From positions 1-43,097 of the forward strand of contig DASWEZ010000156.1 in assembly GCA_036394495.1 (NCBI GenBank): 43,097 nt of DNA. Reading direction: 5' to 3'. The notes beneath the pieces are model-generated. The model saw only the letters and a program-made list of their open reading frames with translations, did not search any database and had not been told where the DNA came from. Positions 4,492-34,028 of the stretch are shown here, in pieces. This DNA is from Burkholderiales bacterium (GTDB lineage: Bacteria > Pseudomonadota > Gammaproteobacteria > Burkholderiales > JACQAP01). The translations under genes were made by a program, and so were the position numbers. Within the stretch, counting starts at the first letter, position 1. The number at the start of each line of letters is the position of its first letter.

Positions 4492-5577
4492 TTGGCTCGC
4501 AAACCCGCAAACCGCAAGAAGCTGTTCCGCTCCCGCCGCAAGACACCCGGCCTGCCCCCCGGTTCGCTGGTGTACACCGGCGATGGCAAATCGCTGACCC
4601 CCCGCGTCACCATGCTCGACTACGACGAGCACAGGGTTGTCGAGAAGGAACTCGTTCGGGTGGACGACTGCATCCCGTTCAAGGATGCCCAGACGGTCAC
4701 CTGGATCAATGTCGACAGCGCCACCCAACCCGGACTGCTGGAGAACTTCGGCCGGGTCATGGGTTTCCATGCGCTGATGCTGGAAGACATCCTCAACACC
4801 GACCAGCGGCCCAAGTTCGAGGACTACGGCAACTACATTTACATCGTCGTGAAGATGCTCGACTACGACGTGAAGAAGGGCGAGATCGAGATCGAACAGT
4901 TGTCGCTCATCCTCGGACCGAACTACGTGATTACGTTCCAGGAGCGCGCGGGGGATTTTTTCGATCCGCTGCGCGAACGCATACGCAAATCCCTTGGGCG
5001 CATACGCAAGCTGGGCACCGACTATCTCGCCTACGCGATACTCGACATCATCGTGGACCACTATTTCGTGGTGCTGGAAAAGCTGGGCGATAAAATCGAG
5101 CAACTCGAGGACATCGTGATCACCAATCCCGGGCAGGACACGGTGCGCGCCGTCCACGCTATCAAGCGCGAGATGATTTTCGTGCGCAAGTCAGTGTGGC
5201 CGCTACGCGAAGTGGTAACCAACCTGCAGCGTTCGGAGTCACCGCTCGTGCGCGAATCGAACGCGGCCTACTTCCGCGACCTGCACGATCACATCATGCA
5301 GGTCACCGACAGCGTGGACACGTTCCGGGACCTCTTGAACGGGATGCTCGATTCCTATTACTCGACCATCACCACGCGGACCAACAGCGTGGTAAAGGTC
5401 CTGACACTTTTTTCCGCGATTTTCATGCCGCTGATGTTCATAACCGGCATTTTCGGCATGAACTTCCGGAATTTTCCCGAACTGGAGTGGCACTACGGCT
5501 TCCAGGGTTCGCTGATCCTGATGGTGGTGGTCACGATCATCATGGTCGCCATTTTCAAATGGAAGAAATGGCTCTAG
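4492..5577 (+). CDS. corA: Magnesium/cobalt transporter CorA
   Basis: Frame of ORF 4390..5577. It resembles Thermotoga-type CorA end to end (GLPPGSLVYTG near the N-terminus, GMN motif as GIFGMNF, two C-terminal TM helices, KWKKWL end). There is no ATG before the conserved N-terminus, and 4390-4478 overlaps marR. I therefore place the start at in-frame TTG 4492, with GGAG 6 nt upstream. Confidence 0.9.
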   Translation: MARKPANRKKLFRSRRKTPGLPPGSLVYTGDGKSLTPRVTMLDYDEHRVVEKELVRVDDCIPFKDAQTVTWINVDSATQPGLLENFGRVMGFHALMLEDILNTDQRPKFEDYGNYIYIVVKMLDYDVKKGEIEIEQLSLILGPNYVITFQERAGDFFDPLRERIRKSLGRIRKLGTDYLAYAILDIIVDHYFVVLEKLGDKIEQLEDIVITNPGQDTVRAVHAIKREMIFVRKSVWPLREVVTNLQRSESPLVRESNAAYFRDLHDHIMQVTDSVDTFRDLLNGMLDSYYSTITTRTNSVVKVLTLFSAIFMPLMFITGIFGMNFRNFPELEWHYGFQGSLILMVVVTIIMVAIFKWKKWL

Positions 5578-5862
5578 GGAAGCTCTGATCAAGTCTTGCG
5601 ACGCGCGTTGCGTCAGGTGCGGATGGATGGGAAGCGCCGCGACGAAGCCAAGGTGGGTACCTTAGCCAGGAGCGCAACAATGCAGACGCCGCACCTGACA
5701 CAACCCGATAATCGCTCGTCTGTTTAGAAGGGACCGGGGTGATTTGGGCCGATGGCTGCTTGGGCTCCTCCTTGTGTAGACCGGCTACACGGCGTCCTCG
5801 CCCTCTTGCCCCAGGCCCAAATCACCCCGGTCGCGCACGTAAGACTTGTTCAGAGCTTCCCT
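5576..5862 (+). other. Nested palindrome / candidate structured RNA in the corA 3-prime region (class unknown)
   Basis: Outer helix 5576-5600 / 5838-5862 (25 positions, 1 mismatch, 1 G-T). Inner hairpin 1: 5607-5622 / 5689-5704 (16 bp, 1 mismatch, 66-nt loop). Inner hairpin 2: 5732-5750 / 5814-5832 (19 bp perfect, 63-nt loop). It starts inside the corA TAG stop codon. No credible ORF. Confidence 0.5.
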
Positions 5863-5892
5863 GGGGCAGTAAACCGGGAGAAAGTCTGGCTG

Positions 5893-27072: not shown

Positions 27073-27243
27073 AATTCATTTTTGCCGCCAAGACGCCAAG
27101 AACGCCAAGGGGGTCGGAAAAGAATGATTGAAATTACGAACGGTGGTTGGTAGTAAAAATGCTGCGTATATCGACCATATTGTCACCATATTTTTTGCTT
27201 TTCTTGGCGCTCTTGGCGCCTTGGCGGCGAAATCTTCTTTAAA
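27073..27243. repeat. Palindromic intergenic element, copy C1
   Basis: Left arm 27084-27109 GCCGCCAAGACGCCAAGAACGCCAAG; right arm 27203-27228 CTTGGCGCTCTTGGCGCCTTGGCGGC; 24/26 paired. It starts 2 nt after the hyi stop. Confidence 0.85.
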
Positions 27244-27407
27244 AATTCATTTTTGCCGCCAAGACGCCAAGAGCGCCAAGGGGGTCGGAAAAGGATGATT
27301 GAAATTACGAACGGTGGTTGGTAGTAAAAATGTTGCGTGTATCGACCATATCGTCACCGTATTTTTTTGTTTTTCTTGGCGCTCTTGGCGCCTTGGCGGC
27401 GAAATCT
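27244..27407. repeat. Palindromic intergenic element, copy C2 (tandem duplicate of C1)
   Basis: Left arm 27255-27280, right arm 27375-27400; 25/26 paired. Offset from C1 is 171-172 bp, with about 8 substitutions and one 1-nt indel between the copies. Confidence 0.85.
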
Positions 27408-27430: not shown

Positions 27431-28312
27431 ATGAACGTAGGATTTATCGGGCTGGGCATCATGGGGAAACCCATGGTCGCCAACCTCATCAAGGGTGGTC
27501 ATACGCTGTTCCTGGCGAGTCGCAGCGGCGTACCACAGGAACTGACCGCCGCGGGCGGGAAAGCGTGCGCATCGGCAAAGGAAGTCGCGCAGAAAGCCGA
27601 CATAATCATCACCATGGTGCCGGACACCCCTGACGTCGAGAAGGTGTTGTTCGGCAAGGACGGCGTCGCCGAAGGGTTGTCATCGGGCAAAATCGTCGTC
27701 GACATGAGTTCGATCTCGCCGATCGAGACCAAGGCCTTCGCCGGGCGCATCAAGAAGTCCGGCGCCGATTACGTGGATGCACCCGTCTCCGGCGGCGAAG
27801 TCGGCGCCAGGAACGCGGCACTCACCATCATGGTCGGCGCTTCCGAAGCGGCATTCGCCAAAGTGAAACCCTTGTTCGAGCTGATGGGCAAGAACATCAC
27901 GCTGGTCGGAGACGTCGGCGCCGGTCAGATATGCAAGGTTTGCAACCAGATCATCGTTGCGTTGAACATCGAAGCCGTCGGCGAAGCGCTGCTGCTTGCC
28001 TCCAAGGCCGGCGTCGATCCGGGCAAGGTGCGTACGGCCCTCATGGGGGGATTTGCCTCGTCGCGCGTGCTCGAAGTGCACGGTGAACGCATGGTCAAGC
28101 GCACTTTCGATCCCGGCTTCCGCATCGAGCTGCACCAGAAGGACCTGAACCTGGCCCTGTCCTCGGCGCGCGCGCTGAAGATGAGCCTGCCAAACACCGC
28201 GACCGCGCAGGAATTGTTCAGCGCCTGCCAGGCCCAGGGCGGCGGCAAGTGGGACCACTCCGCCATGGTCAAAGCCCTCGAAGCCCTCGCCAATCACCAG
28301 GTCGCCAAGTAA
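27431..28312 (+). CDS. glxR: 2-hydroxy-3-oxopropionate (tartronate semialdehyde) reductase
   Basis: 293 aa. GFIGLGIMG NAD motif and the 3-hydroxyisobutyrate-dehydrogenase-family core (DAPVSGG, GAGQICKVCNQ). Context is downstream of hyi. Confidence 0.85.
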   Translation: MNVGFIGLGIMGKPMVANLIKGGHTLFLASRSGVPQELTAAGGKACASAKEVAQKADIIITMVPDTPDVEKVLFGKDGVAEGLSSGKIVVDMSSISPIETKAFAGRIKKSGADYVDAPVSGGEVGARNAALTIMVGASEAAFAKVKPLFELMGKNITLVGDVGAGQICKVCNQIIVALNIEAVGEALLLASKAGVDPGKVRTALMGGFASSRVLEVHGERMVKRTFDPGFRIELHQKDLNLALSSARALKMSLPNTATAQELFSACQAQGGGKWDHSAMVKALEALANHQVAK

Positions 28313-28324
28313 AAAACTGCATTT

Positions 28325-28483
28325 GCCACAGAGGACACAGAGAACTGCAAAGACCAGAACCTACATGAACGTGAACGCCACAACTTTATCGGGTATCGAT
28401 TTTTCAGCTGCTGCGAACGGAACTTCTAACTCTCGAGCAATGATTCATATCCCGCCGTGGGTTTCCTCTGTGACCTCTGTGGC
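28325..28483. repeat. Palindromic intergenic element, copy D
   Basis: Left arm 28325-28342 GCCACAGAGGACACAGAG; right arm 28466-28483 CTCTGTGACCTCTGTGGC; 17/18 paired, with a single A-A mismatch at arm position 11. Confidence 0.8.
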
Positions 28484-28498
28484 TAAAAAGGTATTTTT

Positions 28499-29761
28499 AT
28501 GAATCGGGATCCGCGCGCATTGCTGCGCGCGATGTTCGACGCGGCGATCGCCGCTGCGCTGCCGGACAAGACCTTGCCTGCTTATCTGCCCAAGCCCCCG
28601 AAAGGCCGCACGCTGGTCATCGGTTGCGGCAAGGCCGCGGGAAGCATGGCAAAGGCGGTCGAGGATCACTGGCCCGGCGAACTCTCCGGCATGGTGGTAA
28701 CACGCTACGGCTATAACGTGCCGACCAAGAGAATCGAGGTCGTCGAAGCTGCGCACCCGGTGCCCGACGAGGCCGGGCGCAAAGCGGCGGAGCGCATGCT
28801 GAAAATGGTGCACGGATTGTCCGCCGAGGATCTGGTGCTCTTCCTGGTATCCGGCGGCGGTTCCGCACTGTTGTCGCTGCCGGCGCCAGGACTGACGCTC
28901 GCGGACAAACAGGCGATCAACAAAGCTCTGTTGAGAAGCGGTGCGAACATCACCGAAATGAACTGCGTGCGCAAACATCTCTCGGCCGTAAAAGGCGGGC
29001 GGCTGGCCGCCGCCTGCGCGCCGGCGAAGGTGGTTACGCTCGCGATTTCCGACATTCCCGGCGACGATCCCGCCGTGATCGCTTCCGGCCCGACGGTCGC
29101 CGATGCGACCACGTTCGCCGATGCGGTCGCGATCCTGGAGAAATACGGCATTGCCGAACCGAAGGCCGTCGTCGATCACTTGCGCGCCGCGAAAGAGGAA
29201 ACGCCGAAACCCGGCGATCCGCGGCTCGCGAAAACCGAATTGCACATGGTGGCGGCACCGCAGATTTCGCTCGAAGCCGCCGCGGCTATCGCGCGCGCGT
29301 CCGGCGTCACGCCGGTCATCCTCAGCGACGCAATCGAGGGGGAAGCACGCGAAGTCGCGATAGTGCACGCCGGCATCGCCCGCCAGGTCAAGCGCCACAG
29401 CCAACCCGCCGGGATGCCTTGCGTGCTGCTTTCCGGCGGGGAAACTACGGTTACGGTCCGTGGCAAGGGGCGCGGCGGCCGCAACGCCGAATTTCTGCTG
29501 GCGCTGGCCGTTGCCCTCGCCGGGGAGTCGGGTATTCATGCACTCGCCGGCGATACCGACGGCGTCGACGGCACCGAGGACAACGCCGGCGCGCTAATAA
29601 CGCCCGATTCGCTCACGCGCGCCGCTGCGTGCAATCTGGACGCCAAGAAGATGCTCGCCGATAATGACGGTTATAGTTTCTTCTCCGGCCTCGGCGATCT
29701 GGTCGTTACCGGCCCTACGCTCACCAACGTCAACGATTTCCGCGCGGTTCTGATCACCTGA
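28499..29761 (+). CDS. Glycerate 2-kinase (MOFRL / TtuD-type, often annotated hydroxypyruvate reductase)
   Basis: 420 aa. GCGKAAGSMA, LVSGGGSALL, SGGETTVTVRGKGRGGRN, DTDGVDG motifs of the DUF4147/MOFRL glycerate kinase family. Confidence 0.85.
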   Translation: MNRDPRALLRAMFDAAIAAALPDKTLPAYLPKPPKGRTLVIGCGKAAGSMAKAVEDHWPGELSGMVVTRYGYNVPTKRIEVVEAAHPVPDEAGRKAAERMLKMVHGLSAEDLVLFLVSGGGSALLSLPAPGLTLADKQAINKALLRSGANITEMNCVRKHLSAVKGGRLAAACAPAKVVTLAISDIPGDDPAVIASGPTVADATTFADAVAILEKYGIAEPKAVVDHLRAAKEETPKPGDPRLAKTELHMVAAPQISLEAAAAIARASGVTPVILSDAIEGEAREVAIVHAGIARQVKRHSQPAGMPCVLLSGGETTVTVRGKGRGGRNAEFLLALAVALAGESGIHALAGDTDGVDGTEDNAGALITPDSLTRAAACNLDAKKMLADNDGYSFFSGLGDLVVTGPTLTNVNDFRAVLIT

Positions 29762-29778: not shown

Positions 29779-31278
29779 ATGGGAATGCCCGAACTGCTGT
29801 CGTCGGAAACCCTGCTGCCCGAGATAGCCCATGCGGACCTCGTCGCGCAGTTGACGGCCGCGCTGCCGCCGGCGTCGCTGCTTCATCAGCGCGAGGACCT
29901 GAAGCCCTTCGAATGCGATGGCATGACCGCCTATCAGCGTGTGCCGCTGTTGGTGGCGTTACCGGAAAATGAAGACCAGGTCCGCGCGGTGCTGCGCATC
30001 TGCCACAAGGGCCGCGTGCCGGTCGTATTCCGCGGCGCCGGAACGGGACTTTCCGGAGGCGCCCTGCCGTATGCACAAGGCCTGCTGCTGGTGATGGCGA
30101 AGATGAAGCAGATCCTGCACATTGATCCGGTCGCGCGCATGGCGCGCGTGCAGCCGGGTGTGCGCAACGCGGCTATCTCGGAAGCGACCGCACCCCATGG
30201 CCTCTACTACGCGCCCGACCCGTCCAGCCAAATCGCCTGTTCGATCGGCGGCAACGTCGCCGAAAATTCCGGCGGCGTGCATTGCCTGAAGTACGGCCTG
30301 ACGGTCCACAACATCCAGAAGCTGCGCTTCGTCACCATCGAAGGTGAATTGCTCGATATCGGCTCCGAAGGGCTGGATGCGCCGGGCTACGACCTGATGG
30401 CGTTGATCACCGGTTCCGAGGGCATGCTCGGCGTAGTGACTGAAATTACGGTCAAGCTGTTGCCCAAACCGGAAAAAGCCCAGGTCGTGCTCGCGGCTTT
30501 CGACGACATCGTAAAGGCGGGCCAGGCGGTGGCGGATGTGATCGGGGCGGGCATCATTCCGGCCGGACTGGAGATGATGGACAAGAAGGCCACCGCGGCC
30601 GTCGAACAGTTCGTGCACGCCGGCTACCCGCTGGATGCCGCGGCAATCCTGCTGTGCGAATCCGACGGCACCGCAGAGGAAGTCGCCGACGAAATCGCGC
30701 GCGTCAAGGAAGTCATGAAGAAGGCCGGCGCCACCGAGATCCGTACTTCACGCGACGAAACCGAGCGGCTCAAATTCTGGGCCGGACGCAAGGCTGCCTT
30801 CCCCGCGGTCGGGCGCATCATGCCGGATTACTACTGCATGGACGGCACCATTCCGAAGAAGCATCTGCCCTACGTGCTCAAGCGCATCGACGAACTGTCG
30901 GCAAAATTCAATCTGCAATGCGCCAACGTGTTCCATGCCGGCGACGGTAATCTGCATCCGTTGATCATGTTCGATGCCAACGAGGGCGACCAGAATGAAC
31001 GGGCGGAGGCTTATGGCGCGGCGATCCTGGAACTCTGCGTCGAGGTCGGCGGCACCATCACGGGCGAGCACGGCGTCGGCATCGAAAAAATAAATCAGAT
31101 GTGTGTGCAGTTCAATACCAACGAGCTGAAAACCTTCCATGCAGTGAAAAAAGTGTTCGACGAATACGGCCTGCTGAATCCCGGCAAGGCCGTGCCGACG
31201 CTGCAACGCTGCGCCGAAGGCGGCAAGATGCACGTGCACCGCGGGCAGGAGAAATTTCCCGAGCTGCCGCGTTTTTAG
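29779..31278 (+). CDS. glcD: Glycolate oxidase FAD-binding subunit GlcD
   Basis: 499 aa. FAD-binding PCMH domain (RGAGTGLSGGALP); C-terminal ITGEHGVGIEK...LNPGK. Followed by glcE and glcF. Confidence 0.9.
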   Translation: MGMPELLSSETLLPEIAHADLVAQLTAALPPASLLHQREDLKPFECDGMTAYQRVPLLVALPENEDQVRAVLRICHKGRVPVVFRGAGTGLSGGALPYAQGLLLVMAKMKQILHIDPVARMARVQPGVRNAAISEATAPHGLYYAPDPSSQIACSIGGNVAENSGGVHCLKYGLTVHNIQKLRFVTIEGELLDIGSEGLDAPGYDLMALITGSEGMLGVVTEITVKLLPKPEKAQVVLAAFDDIVKAGQAVADVIGAGIIPAGLEMMDKKATAAVEQFVHAGYPLDAAAILLCESDGTAEEVADEIARVKEVMKKAGATEIRTSRDETERLKFWAGRKAAFPAVGRIMPDYYCMDGTIPKKHLPYVLKRIDELSAKFNLQCANVFHAGDGNLHPLIMFDANEGDQNERAEAYGAAILELCVEVGGTITGEHGVGIEKINQMCVQFNTNELKTFHAVKKVFDEYGLLNPGKAVPTLQRCAEGGKMHVHRGQEKFPELPRF

Positions 31279-31289
31279 TGCAATACCCT

Positions 31290-31485
31290 GAACCACGGAG
31301 GACACGGAGGACACGGAGGAAAAACAAAACAAGGAAAAGAAAATTTGAGTTTGGAACATGGCCTGTTTGTAAACCTGTACCTCCAATTTTCGCCGCCACG
31401 GATCATCAAGCAATGAAAGGCTTTTAACCCCGGCATTTCTATTGTACTTGCCTTTCCTCCGTGTCCTCCGTGTCCTCCGTGGTTC
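31290..31485. repeat. Palindromic intergenic element, copy E (perfect 33-bp arms)
   Basis: 31290-31322 GAACCACGGAGGACACGGAGGACACGGAGGAAA is the exact reverse complement of 31453-31485. 130-bp A/T-rich core. Confidence 0.9.
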
Positions 31486-31496
31486 ATTCTTTCCTG

Positions 31497-32549
31497 ATGC
31501 AGCAAGTCATAGAACAGTTTTCCGAAACGATCCGCAAGGCGGCCGCCGAGCAGGTGCAGCTGCGCATTCGCGGTAGCGGCAGCAAGGATTTCTACGGCCT
31601 GGTGCTGATGGGCGACGTGCTCGACACGCGATCCCTGACCGGCATCGTCGACTATGAGCCCACCGAACTGGTGATCACTGCACGCGCGGGCACGCCTTTG
31701 CGCGAAATCGACAAGGCACTGGCAGGCGGCGGCCAGATGCTGGCCTTCGAACCGCCCCACTTCGGCGCCGGGGCGACGCTCGGCGGCTGCATCGCCACGG
31801 GTTTTTCCGGACCGCGACGCGCAACTGCAGGCTCGGCACGGGATTTCGTGCTGGGCGTGCGGATCGTGAACGGCCTGGGAGAAGACCTGCGGTTCGGCGG
31901 GCAGGTCATGAAAAACGTCGCGGGCTACGACTTGTCGCGACTGCTGACCGGATCTTTCGGCACACTGGGACTCATCACCGAAGCATCGCTGAAAGTGCTG
32001 CCCGTGCCGGCGGAAGAACGTACGCTGCGTTTTGCTCTGGACGAGGCTGCGGCGATCGAGTCCATGAACAAATGGGCGGCCAGGCCAATGGCGCTATCCG
32101 CCACCTGCCATGTCGATGGCGCCCTGTACGTGCGATTGTCGGGTGCGGCTGCCGCAGTTGCGGCCTCACAAAAGAAACTCGGCGGGGATGTCGTCCAGGA
32201 TGGCGCTGCGTTCTGGCAGTCGATCAGGGAGCAGACGCATGAACTGTTGGCAGGCGCGCCCGCTCTTTGGCGTTTCTCGATTAAATCAACCACCGCGCCG
32301 CTCGGTCTGGGCAAGCAGATGATGGAATGGAACGGCAGCCTGCGCTGGATTGCCGCAGACCTCGATCCGTCGGCGGCATTCGAGACCGCGCACAAGGCCG
32401 GCGGACACGCTACCCTGTTCCGGGGTGGCAACAAGCGCCACGGCATCCAGCAATTCTCGTCGGGGCTGCTCGCCGTCCACAAGAAACTCAAGCGTGCGCT
32501 CGATCCCCACGGCATTCTCGGGCCCGGGCGCATCCATGCTGATTTCTAG
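31497..32549 (+). CDS. glcE: Glycolate oxidase subunit GlcE
   Basis: Frame of ORF 31461..32549, trimmed to the first ATG (31497, MQQVIEQFSETIRKAAAE...). The first 12 codons of the GTG-started ORF are encoded by the arm of element E. Collinear with E. coli GlcE (DYEPTELVITARAGTPL, RFGGQVMKNVAGYDLSRL, GGHATLFRGG). Confidence 0.85.
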   Translation: MQQVIEQFSETIRKAAAEQVQLRIRGSGSKDFYGLVLMGDVLDTRSLTGIVDYEPTELVITARAGTPLREIDKALAGGGQMLAFEPPHFGAGATLGGCIATGFSGPRRATAGSARDFVLGVRIVNGLGEDLRFGGQVMKNVAGYDLSRLLTGSFGTLGLITEASLKVLPVPAEERTLRFALDEAAAIESMNKWAARPMALSATCHVDGALYVRLSGAAAAVAASQKKLGGDVVQDGAAFWQSIREQTHELLAGAPALWRFSIKSTTAPLGLGKQMMEWNGSLRWIAADLDPSAAFETAHKAGGHATLFRGGNKRHGIQQFSSGLLAVHKKLKRALDPHGILGPGRIHADF

Positions 32550-32561
32550 ATCTAATTCTTC

Positions 32562-32737
32562 ACCGCAAAGGCGCAAAGACGCAAAGGGAACGCAAAGAAA
32601 ATCGGTGCCGAAGGAATGAACAAATCTCGCCAGCCCCAGATCGCACATAATTGCCCAAATGCATCGTCAAGTTTGCAATTCTCACATTTATGGTTGTTTT
32701 CCTTTGCGTTCCCTTTGCGCCTTTGCGCCTCTGCGGT
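32562..32737. repeat. Palindromic intergenic element, copy F
   Basis: Left arm 32562-32601 ACCGCAAAGGCGCAAAGACGCAAAGGGAACGCAAAGAAAA. Right arm 32697-32737 TTTTCCTTTGCGTTCCCTTTGCGCCTTTGCGCCTCTGCGGT. About 38 pairs, 2 mismatches, 1 bulge. Confidence 0.85.
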
Positions 32738-32768
32738 TAATTTTGGTTGTTTTGGTTGGTTGCCTTAG

Positions 32769-34028
32769 ATGAAAACGAATCTAGCCGAGTTCATCCGCAA
32801 CACGCCCGAGGGCCAGGAAGCCGACAGCATCCTGCGCGCCTGCGTCCATTGCGGCTTCTGCACGGCGACCTGTCCGACTTATCAGTTGCTGGGTGACGAA
32901 CTCGACAGCCCGCGTGGACGCATCTACCTGATGAAGGAAGTCCTCGAAGGCAATGCGGTCACGGCCAAGACGCAGATGCACCTCGACCGCTGCCTGACCT
33001 GCCGCGCCTGCGAAACCACCTGTCCTTCTGGGGTGCAGTACGGCCGGCTGGTGGACATCGGGCGCAACATCGTCGACCAGCACGTAAGCCGTCCCCTGCC
33101 GGAATCAATCGTGCGCAGTGTACTGCGCATCGTATTGCCGCGGCCGGTGTTGTTCAGGTCATTGCTGCGCATCGGACAGTTCGTGCGCCCGCTTCTGCCC
33201 GCTTCCCTAAGGAAGAAAATACCGAAAACCGGAACCAGCGACATCGAATGGCCGGCGCCCCGCCATACGCGCAGGATGCTGGTACTCGACGGCTGCGTGC
33301 AACCTTCGCTGGCACCCGACATCAATCCCGCGACCGCGCGCGTGCTGGATCGCCTCGGCATTTCGCTGATCAAGGCTGAAGCTGCGGGATGCTGCGGCGC
33401 CGTGACCTTCCATTTGAACCGGCAGGACGAAGCGCTCGACTACATGCGCAGGAACATCGACGCCTGGTGGCCGCATGTCGAGGCCGGCGTGGAGGCCGTG
33501 GTCATCACCGCGAGCGGTTGCGGCACCATGGTCAGGGAATACGGCCATCTTCTTGCCCGCGATCCGCAGTACGCGGCAAAAGCCGCAAGGATCAGCAAAC
33601 TGTCGAAAGACATCAGCGAAATAATCTTCGCCGAACGCGAAAAACTGGAACAGCTTTTTCCACTCAGCATGCAGCACACAGCACACAGCACTCCAGACGC
33701 CGCGCGAACGCGCGTCGCCTTTCATTCCCCCTGCTCCCTCCAGCACGGCCTGCAGATTCGCGGCACGGTGGAAGCCTTGCTGACCTTGGTCGGGTGCAAG
33801 TTGACGACGGTACCGGATTCGCATCTGTGCTGCGGATCGGCGGGCACATATTCGATACTTCAACCCGAACTGTCGCAGCGATTGCTGAACAACAAGATTG
33901 CCGCATTGGAGTCGGGCGCGCCGGCGATCGTCGCAACGGCGAATATCGGCTGCCTGAGCCATATTCAAAGCGGGACCGCCATCAAAGTGAAGCATTGGAT
34001 CAACGTACTGGACGAAAGGCTGTCATGA
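32769..34028 (+). CDS. glcF: Glycolate oxidase iron-sulfur subunit GlcF
   Basis: 419 aa. Two 4Fe-4S motifs (CVHCGFCTATCP, CLTCRACETTCP) and two CCG-type Cys-rich repeats. Confidence 0.9.
   Translation: MKTNLAEFIRNTPEGQEADSILRACVHCGFCTATCPTYQLLGDELDSPRGRIYLMKEVLEGNAVTAKTQMHLDRCLTCRACETTCPSGVQYGRLVDIGRNIVDQHVSRPLPESIVRSVLRIVLPRPVLFRSLLRIGQFVRPLLPASLRKKIPKTGTSDIEWPAPRHTRRMLVLDGCVQPSLAPDINPATARVLDRLGISLIKAEAAGCCGAVTFHLNRQDEALDYMRRNIDAWWPHVEAGVEAVVITASGCGTMVREYGHLLARDPQYAAKAARISKLSKDISEIIFAEREKLEQLFPLSMQHTAHSTPDAARTRVAFHSPCSLQHGLQIRGTVEALLTLVGCKLTTVPDSHLCCGSAGTYSILQPELSQRLLNNKIAALESGAPAIVATANIGCLSHIQSGTAIKVKHWINVLDERLS

Follow-up and report, generated by a model that had tools for sequence, protein, structure and literature searches.

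Gene-less hairpin elements with tandem-unit arms separate glcD, glcE and glcF in a Burkholderiales bacterium and share their arms with GxxExxY cassettes

We analysed a 43,097-nt stretch of DNA (the window) from a Burkholderiales bacterium (GTDB JACQAP01; contig DASWEZ010000156.1 of assembly GCA_036394495.1, here G000), in which the glycolate oxidase genes glcD, glcE and glcF are separated by two hairpin elements, E and F. We conclude, with a probability that we put at about 0.72, that E and F are gene-less members of a genome-wide family of hairpins with tandem-unit arms, that they are tolerated passengers and not a control device of glycolate oxidase, and that they are miniature non-autonomous relatives of cassettes carrying a GxxExxY gene. 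The relationship to these cassettes is the best reading because identical arms bracket GxxExxY genes (PD-(D/E)XK nuclease superfamily) elsewhere.

The distance from the glcD stop (TAG, 31276-31278) to the glcE ATG (31497) is 218 nt and that from the glcE stop (TAG, 32547-32549) to the glcF ATG (32769) is 219 nt, exactly the gap sizes given in the initial annotation, and one inverted repeat occupies nearly all of each gap. Element E (+ strand, as are all features of this region) follows the glcD stop after 10 unpaired nucleotides (31279-31288, TGCAATACCC; similar in orthologues, TGCAGATCCT and TGCAGAACCT). Its 5' arm (31289-31322), delimited by repeat search and RNAfold, consists of TGAAC and three copies of CACGGAGGA, followed by an A-rich tail up to 31327. 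The 130-nt core (31323-31452) is AT-richer than the genome and contains a partly conserved block, CTGTTTGTAAACCTGTACCTCCAATTTTCGCC. The 3' arm (31453-31486), with three copies of TCCTCCGTG and GTTCA, is the perfect complement of the 5' arm, and a pyrimidine-rich 10-nt spacer (TTCTTTCCTG, 31487-31496) without a Shine-Dalgarno sequence leads to the glcE ATG. RNAfold pairs 31289-31322 with 31453-31486 in 34 unbroken base pairs, with a minimum free energy of -94.6 kcal/mol. Shuffled sequences gave -52.3 +/- 4.7 kcal/mol (z = -9.1), and none of 200 equalled the value for E. An inverted-repeat search extended the arms to 39 nt at 95% complementarity (31289-31327 / 31448-31486). The core length had thus been given correctly before, and only small corrections are needed for the perfect arms (34 bp, not 33) and for the spacers (10 and 10 nt, not 12 and 11).

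Element F begins 12 nt after the glcE stop. Its 5' arm (32562-32601; repeat search, RNAfold) is built of CACC and GCAAAGG/CGCAAAG units and belongs to the CGCAAAGG class. A 96-nt core (32602-32697), unique when compared with the genome, separates it from a 3' arm of CCTTTGCG units (32698-32737; repeat search, RNAfold) that is ~91% complementary. The 31-nt spacer to the glcF ATG (TAATTTTGGTTGTTTTGGTTGGTTGCCTTAG, 32738-32768) is U-rich and likewise lacks a Shine-Dalgarno sequence. By inverted-repeat search the arms measure 43 nt at 91% complementarity (32559-32601 / 32698-32740), in line with the ~40 bp first noted for this copy. The fold (32562-32737) has a minimum free energy of -76.6 kcal/mol (z = -5.5), which again none of 200 shuffles equalled. 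Both hairpins are real and lie well past chance expectation. No match reached the Rfam gathering score anywhere in the window.

E and F conform to a design that recurs throughout G000, namely two inverted arms of 2-4 tandem 7-10-nt units each, enclosing a 60-250-nt core. The assembly is a fragmented, repeat-rich metagenome-assembled genome (2.96 Mb, 314 contigs, 61% GC, ~80% complete). A conservative detector, which required tandem units in both arms, counted at least 224 hairpins, built from units of 8-9 nt, and a dozen distinct unit sequences coexist. The E-type 18-mer occurs 34 times, the E terminus TGAACCACGGAGGACACGG recurs at many other loci, and the termini found across the family are TGAACC, TTCACC, TCTCACC and TTTGCC. 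When the cores of E, F and the sister copies A, C and D of the window were compared with the genome, all were unique except for a 45-nt block of E; the E-core block CTGTTTGTAAACCTGTACCTCCAATTTTCGCC recurs in the same-terminus paralogues C158:6791, C172:8337 and C23:8797 and in the orthologue at locus L002 of another species.

Of the gene junctions, 9% of the co-directional, 13% of the convergent and 5% of the divergent ones were occupied, percentages that are approximate since the census used a crude home-made scorer of open reading frames (ORFs) that missed or mis-oriented some genes. The median distance was 14.5 nt from stop to stem and ~30 nt from stem to next start, and half of the co-directional copies genome-wide lay <15 nt from a stop. 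The spacer left beside hairpins (~48 nt) is akin to unoccupied junctions (56-62 nt). The polarity of the arms relative to gene direction (purine arm on the left in 210 of 224) was dropped as an indicator of transcription, because a perfect inverted repeat reads alike on both strands and only the core could orient it.

The exact 18-mer CACGGAGGACACGGAGGA was present in 13 of 401 order-level genomes, among them 6 of 9 congeners. This distribution is patchy, and single genomes of two other families (G003 and G310) hold 27-31 copies, which suggests that an arm class has spread horizontally. We also observed smaller sequences nested in the 5' arms. In the congener G404, a 28-nt piece, CAGCTTCAGC(C/G)GTAAGTGTTTCACCTTA, splits the first arm unit in each glcDEF hairpin, E-type as well as F-type (L001 862-889 and 2153-2180). 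In G000, a related ~35-nt piece, GCGCCGCAAGCGGCACAAGTGTTCCCTTGAGGCAC, splits arms of the CACGAAGG class, for example at C106:5882, C123:3952, C124:1353 and C144:12175, and its 16-mer CAAGTGTTCCCTTGAG occurs 36 times. The nested piece has the look of a further, smaller mobile unit with arm units as its target.

The arms of E and F also flank a gene. At G000:C243:7629-8095, F-type arms (AACCGCAGAGGCGCAAAGGCGCAAAGGGAACGCAAAGG ... CCTTTGCGCCTTTGCGCCTCTGCGGTT) surround a GxxExxY gene (TIGR04256, 136.9 bits; PF13366, PDDEXK_3, 104 bits), and at the start of contig C200 a second GxxExxY gene is followed by a CGCCAAGA-type arm, as found in the sister copies C1 and C2 of the window. Twelve congeners yielded 18 further GxxExxY matches. 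There, E-type arms flank the gene at G407:C213 (TGAACCACGGAGGACACGG... / ...CCGTGTCCTCCGTGGTTCA) and G405:C35, F-type arms at G401:C35, G407:C36 and G406:C87, and arms of the GCCACAGAG, CACAGAGG, CACGAAGG and CGCCAAGG types at other loci. When loci were picked by the protein alone, the flanks of 11 out of 16 were mutually inverted with scores above the 95th percentile of mismatched pairs (median score 21 vs 7). Among the proteins at L100-L117, clades mostly tracked the arm class (CACGGAG, CGCCAAGG, CACGAAGG, GCCACAGAG and the CGCAAAG group; C200 is the exception), in a small sample in which relatives share labels. Such a match could arise if the protein recognised the units of its own arms, or if gene and arms were simply inherited together. 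The ribF-ileS cassette is orthologous in four genomes, and its units differ (CGCAAAGG, CGCGGAGG, CGCAAAG, CACAGAGG) yet are complementary.

At the C243 locus (G000:C243:6631-8120; L098 431-1920), the ribF frame extends through the 5' arm of the cassette (...DAGAARDYF, then RTAEAQRRKGNAKESN and the stop), and the ribF stop overlaps the ATG of the cassette gene (TGATG). The cassette nuclease gene may therefore be translationally coupled to ribF. Long-range inverted pairs (300-6000 bp) were considered as autonomous elements; they were mostly neighbouring short copies, and a gene was enclosed only in C243. In G000 we found neither S23p (PF05635) nor a Y1 transposase (PF01797), an absence that is unproven in a genome ~80% complete. 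In the literature searched, the GxxExxY family is rarely mentioned and never in connection with repeats, and no name exists for tandem-unit hairpins tied to GxxExxY cassettes.

We then compared the glc junctions of relatives. Tight packing of glcDEF, which the initial annotation had taken as the usual state, is borne out: in E. coli K-12, glcD and glcE overlap by 1 nt and glcE and glcF are 10 nt apart, and among 80 betaproteobacterial loci retrieved with GlcE the glcD-glcE gap had a median of 16.5 nt (<=50 nt in 53 of 74) and the glcE-glcF gap a median of 6 nt (<=50 nt in 53 of 71). The congener G407 (locus L005) reads TAG-10 nt-ATG at the first junction and has an overlapping TGATG at the second, where G406 has TGAATG. 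As E. coli, most relatives and G407 are tight, the tight arrangement is taken as ancestral, and the ancestral junctions were probably translationally coupled.

Within the same GTDB genus the junctions vary widely. Gaps of 218 and 219 nt with E (CACGGAGGA) and F (CGCAAAGG) in G000 correspond to 225 and 232 nt in G404 (locus L001), which has the same classes with the nested pieces. G408 carries a CACGGAGGA element and a CACAGAGG-class element in gaps of 194 and 259 nt, whereas both elements of G401 (197 and 206 nt) are of the CACAGAGG class. G176 has a CGCAAAGG-class element in the first gap (224 nt) and none in the second (27 nt). Both junctions are hairpin-free in G405 (73 and 35 nt), G402 (74 and 26 nt) and G407 (10 and 0 nt), and G406, scored at glcE-glcF, has 0 nt and no hairpin there. 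Gain, loss and replacement are thus frequent, and intact glcDEF occurs with 0, 1 or 2 inserts. The glcD-glcE gaps of G405 and G402 (L091/L093, 73-74 nt) hold the sequence ACGCAACCGCTTCAGCCGG(A/G)AA(T/G)GGTCTCAACGCAA, which may be a lone CGCAA-type arm unit with a nested insert, the remnant of a deleted hairpin.

The three genes themselves are intact and conserved, as judged by profile search and by comparison with relatives. GlcD, the FAD-linked subunit (499 aa, 29779-31278, +), matched PRK11230 over its full length with 829.8 bits. GlcE (350 aa, 31497-32549, +) matched PRK11282 with 482 bits and the Fe-S subunit GlcF (419 aa, 32769-34028, +) PRK11274 with 680.5 bits. The GlcE and GlcF scores pass the NCBIfam cut-offs; GlcD (830 bits) falls slightly below its cut-off of 897, yet this is its full-length best match. 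Because all three genes are intact and conserved, the operon evidently tolerates the inserts.

The nearest relatives from other species (L001-L004 and L006; GlcE 86-66% identical) have hairpins at both junctions, of the same arm classes and with similar 10-nt spacers. E is orthologous in L002, L003, L004, G404 and G408, with the same termini and flanking spacers. Since both hairpins are shared by the nearest relatives and E of L002 aligns through the core, the insertions predate the split of several species. An assembly artefact, that is, repeats misjoined in a metagenome-assembled contig, might be suspected in a genome of 314 contigs that is repeat-rich and 80% complete; it has virtually no probability, given that other species, assembled independently, have hairpins of the same classes at these two junctions between the same flanking spacers. 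In distant lineages (L019, L020, L036, L037, L075) the hairpins at glc junctions are made of other unit types, and L025 and L055 have ordinary palindromes there that resemble repetitive extragenic palindromic (REP) sequences. Wider glc gaps in L038, L041, L067, L070, L073, L078 and L079 were considered as GxxExxY cassettes and rejected, as they contain ordinary extra genes.

It may be argued that E and F are exapted RNA devices, kept since cleavage by RNase III, protected ends or occlusion of starts would tune the stability or translation of each cistron and thereby subunit stoichiometry. Both junctions are occupied in G000, G404, G408 and G401 and in four further species (L002-L004, L006), the geometry is tight, with 10 nt either side of E, and G000 encodes RNase III (rnc); moreover, the fragments flanking ribosomal RNA (rRNA) intervening sequences accumulate unequally after RNase III excision (PMC4990558). 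Against this stands the variation just described: five congeners (G405, G402, G406, G407 and G176) keep an intact glcDEF without one or both hairpins, the arm class at the same junction differs by species, and about 1 in 10 junctions genome-wide holds such an element whatever the gene function.

Sequence conservation bears on the same question. At 4-fold sites of glcE, the window is 50% identical to L002, 60% to L001 and 47% to L003. The arms of E are ~96% identical between the window and L002, with one difference per arm. These differences are compensatory and fall in unit 2, where the window pairs CACGGAGGA:TCCTCCGTG and L002 pairs CACAGAGGA:TCCTCTGTG. Arms that stay near-perfect though synonymous sites are saturated would fit an RNA device. 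Within the E core, the window and L002 agree at 80% over a 67-nt block; F cores are unalignable even against the closest relative. The paralogue at C158:6791 matches the L002 copy at 77% over 92 nt, as closely as the orthologue does, so constraint or homogenisation acts on the family and not on the glc locus. An excess of G·U pairs would be expected if the sense transcript were under selection, and we found none in 106 co-directional stems (52 G·U-type vs 49 A·C-type mismatches, p = 0.84; modest counts, with gene orientation from approximate in-house calls). Selection at the RNA level is thus without support. Together with the variation among congeners, the absence of a G·U bias and arm conservation as a family property make an RNA device at this locus unlikely.

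The force that keeps the arms complementary is strand-symmetric and could be recognition of both ends at the DNA level, correction of one arm by the other, or recent copying. Strand symmetry would also suit arrays that serve as operators of a nucleoid-associated or global regulator and act on transcription or chromosome structure, a role proposed for the paired octanucleotide sites of Geobacter metallireducens, one of which lies between proB and proA (PMC2700814); the 8-9-bp units here recur about once per helical turn. However, a dozen unit sequences in one genome would demand many regulators, occupancy differs among congeners, and the arm class follows the clade of the enclosed GxxExxY protein, a pattern that suits an element with a protein of its own better than a host regulator. 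We consider regulator-binding sites very unlikely.

A further explanation holds that E and F are transcription terminators or attenuators that separate glcD, glcE and glcF into transcription units, the AT-rich cores supplying promoters. In its favour, AT content is higher in the cores than in the genome and a U-rich tract, TTAATTTTGGTTGTTTT, lies 3' of stem F. The sequence after E, UUCAUUCUUUCC, has no U run, however, and L001 and L003 do not keep the U tract in their orthologous copies of F. A scan of 26.9-34.2 kb for sigma-70 promoters and intrinsic terminators gave one promoter-like site vs 1.7 expected, outside the elements, and neither E nor F yielded more than chance would. Stems of 34-40 bp with loops of 96-130 nt are also unlike the short GC-rich stem and small loop of intrinsic terminators, and this explanation is highly improbable.

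The initial annotation had proposed that a three-subunit enzyme must 'tolerate, or exploit' two long helices in its mRNA. Intact genes and congeners with tight junctions favour toleration. The variable junctions, the at least 224 copies elsewhere, the arms shared with cassettes and the lack of a G·U bias leave exploitation without support and in part speak against it. Several observations nevertheless weigh against our reading of E and F as passengers related to GxxExxY cassettes. The conservation of E beyond neutral drift could mean function. No target-site duplication was seen in the flanks of E (CCC / TTC), of F or of 20 E-type copies, and no precise empty site was found. The C243 gene, enclosed by F-type arms, carries one in-frame TAG. 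Finally, blastn and blastx detected no similarity between the cores of E and F and 18 GxxExxY cassettes; the tie to the cassettes lies in the arms, and descent by internal deletion finds no support in the cores, which hold no trace of the gene.

The start of glcE required particular attention, since an ORF starting with GTG at 31461 begins within the 3' arm of E. The GlcE profile begins at ATG 31497, which is residue 13 of the GTG ORF, nucleotide conservation across six orthologues begins precisely at this ATG, and in L002 a 2-nt indel throws the arm-borne GTG out of frame. ATG 31497 is therefore the credible start, as first annotated, and GTG 31461 is a false ORF start produced by the repeat arm. 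The earlier remark that the glcE ATG has no recognisable Shine-Dalgarno sequence also holds: no purine-rich motif was found in the sequence upstream of glcE (CATTCTTTCCTG), nor upstream of glcF (GGTTGCCTTAG). We rejected this absence as a special trait of the two genes, as it is common across this genome. Only 31% of strongly called G000 genes have a Shine-Dalgarno-like 4-mer at -18..-4, vs 13% in a control window, a low share that is probably due in part to start codons miscalled by the crude gene caller. About half of the genes 3' of such hairpins are without the 4-mer, and the spacers of the hairpin-free G407/L005 junctions likewise have no obvious Shine-Dalgarno sequence.

We propose the following course of events. 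The elements would have entered tight, coupled glcD-glcE and glcE-glcF junctions in the ancestor of several species of a genus of soil Burkholderiales, possibly mobilised in trans by a GxxExxY protein recognising the arm units, which is a guess. If the cluster is co-transcribed, each element would form a 34-40-bp RNA stem, and, by analogy with Correia elements and the intervening sequences of rRNA, RNase III would divide the transcript into three pieces, one each for glcD, glcE and glcF. Stems located 10-12 nt past the stops would hinder termination, as suggested by REPs of E. coli. Stop-start coupling would be lost, or would work across the base of the stem, and glcE and glcF would presumably start on short, unstructured, pyrimidine-rich leaders.

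A more far-reaching proposal is tentative and, in our judgement, doubtful. E and F would represent an undescribed mobile class in which the GxxExxY PD-(D/E)XK nuclease recognises arms of co-diverging 8-9-bp units and the element inserts just past stops in operons; RNase III would remove the arms, as it does with rRNA intervening sequences, so that glcDEF is transcribed as a single RNA but serves as three. In a bolder variant, the stem would keep a spatial distance of 20 nt between the glcD stop and the glcE start, and terminating ribosomes would re-initiate across its base, which is 10 nt from the glcE ATG.

The wider cluster is co-directional on the + strand and comprises garR (27431-28312; ORF and profile match), a glycerate 2-kinase gene (28499-29761; ORF and profile match), glcD, glcE, glcF and an SDR-family dehydrogenase gene. 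Four of the six junctions of this gar-glc cluster carry hairpin elements. Besides E and F, the window holds sister copy D (GCCACAGAGG class, 28326-28483, inverted-repeat search) between garR and the glycerate kinase gene, and copies C1 and C2 (CGCCAAGA class, about 27083-27404) upstream of garR. C1 and C2 form a tandem duplicate with cores 92% identical. This is a head-to-tail duplication of the whole hairpin (27073-27407), and therefore local tandem duplication can also multiply the elements. Sister copy A (CACAGAGG class, 1063-1211) was found by inverted-repeat search. A different repeat family is represented by a 287-bp nested palindrome at 5571-5867 (outer arms 30 nt; inner perfect 19-bp stem, 5732-5750 / 5814-5832), with copies at C46:28121-28415 and C191:6317-6417.

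The consequences for glycolate oxidase are small, as the genes are intact and the inserts passenger-like. Close relatives with 0, 1 or 2 hairpins of ~200 nt in one three-subunit operon nevertheless constitute a natural experiment, and the series suits the study of what long stems between cistrons do to translational coupling, to the processing of the mRNA and to termination at stops close by. The locus lends further weight to the view that GxxExxY cassettes have their gene-less form in a very abundant, almost undescribed repeat type that environmental bacteria carry. Such repeats break assemblies and yield false ORF starts such as GTG 31461, and their recognition improves annotation.

In their behaviour, the elements resemble REP/REPIN sequences, Correia elements or miniature inverted-repeat transposable elements (MITEs), and rRNA intervening sequences, but they miss a defining feature of each. 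REP/BIME and REPIN sequences of enterobacteria and pseudomonads (PMC3116915, PMC12306157) are likewise extragenic, enriched after stops and placed between co-directional or convergent genes. According to the account in PMC12306157 of Liang et al. 2015, terminating ribosomes stall at E. coli REPs that lie <16 nt from a stop, and the output of the upstream gene falls. REPs, however, are single palindromes of 20-40 bp with a GTAG/CGTC head that are mobilised by the RAYT Y1 transposase, whereas the elements described here have TGAACC/TTCACC termini, tandem-unit arms of 30-45 bp and a loop of ~100 nt, and no Y1 transposase was found in the 80% complete genome.

Correia elements (CREE) of Neisseria are inverted-repeat elements of 100-150 bp that occur, like those here, in hundreds of copies; they are co-transcribed with their neighbours, and their transcribed hairpins are bound, cut or protected by RNase III (PMC2649163). 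In CREE a single 26-bp terminal repeat and the core are conserved, and an IHF site and a TA duplication are present, in contrast to arms made of tandem units of many covarying classes, mostly unique cores and no visible duplication. A MITE would share its terminal inverted repeats with a transposase-encoding autonomous element; the arms of E and F are common to gene-bearing cassettes, but GxxExxY is no demonstrated transposase, and a target-site duplication is not seen. Intervening sequences of 23S rRNA, e.g. in Coxiella burnetii, are selfish inserts whose inverted arms pair into a stem within the transcript of the host, and which may contain a small ORF. RNase III excises the stem-bounded insert, and the flanking pieces are unequal in amount (PMC4990558). 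They lie in helices 25/45 of 23S rRNA and typically encode S23p (PF05635), whereas E and F lie between protein genes and are ORF-less, their relatives carry GxxExxY, and cleavage would be expected only by analogy.

The GGGNATC heptamer repeats of Xanthomonas and Nostoc are transcribed, mostly in about four copies, and are overrepresented between co-directional ORFs <50 bp from stops (Rehm et al. 2015, PMC4692102). Together with the cyanobacterial STRR repeats, they share short tandem 7-nt units and the same location bias with the elements studied here. Unlike these elements, the heptamers are described as G-quadruplex-forming direct arrays, without the layout of a hairpin plus core and without an enclosed gene. 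The closest published description is that of the paired sites of G. metallireducens, which comprise four tandem octanucleotide repeats each, on opposite strands and at variable distance (Aklujkar et al. 2009, PMC2700814). Compared by description, those sites differ in their unit consensus, GTTGCTYN, in being read as sites of an IHF/HU-type regulator and in that their description draws no link with mobility or an enclosed gene. Like E and F and their relatives, they consist of tandem ~8-nt units on opposite strands, occur in many copies and are intergenic, also inside operons such as proB-proA.

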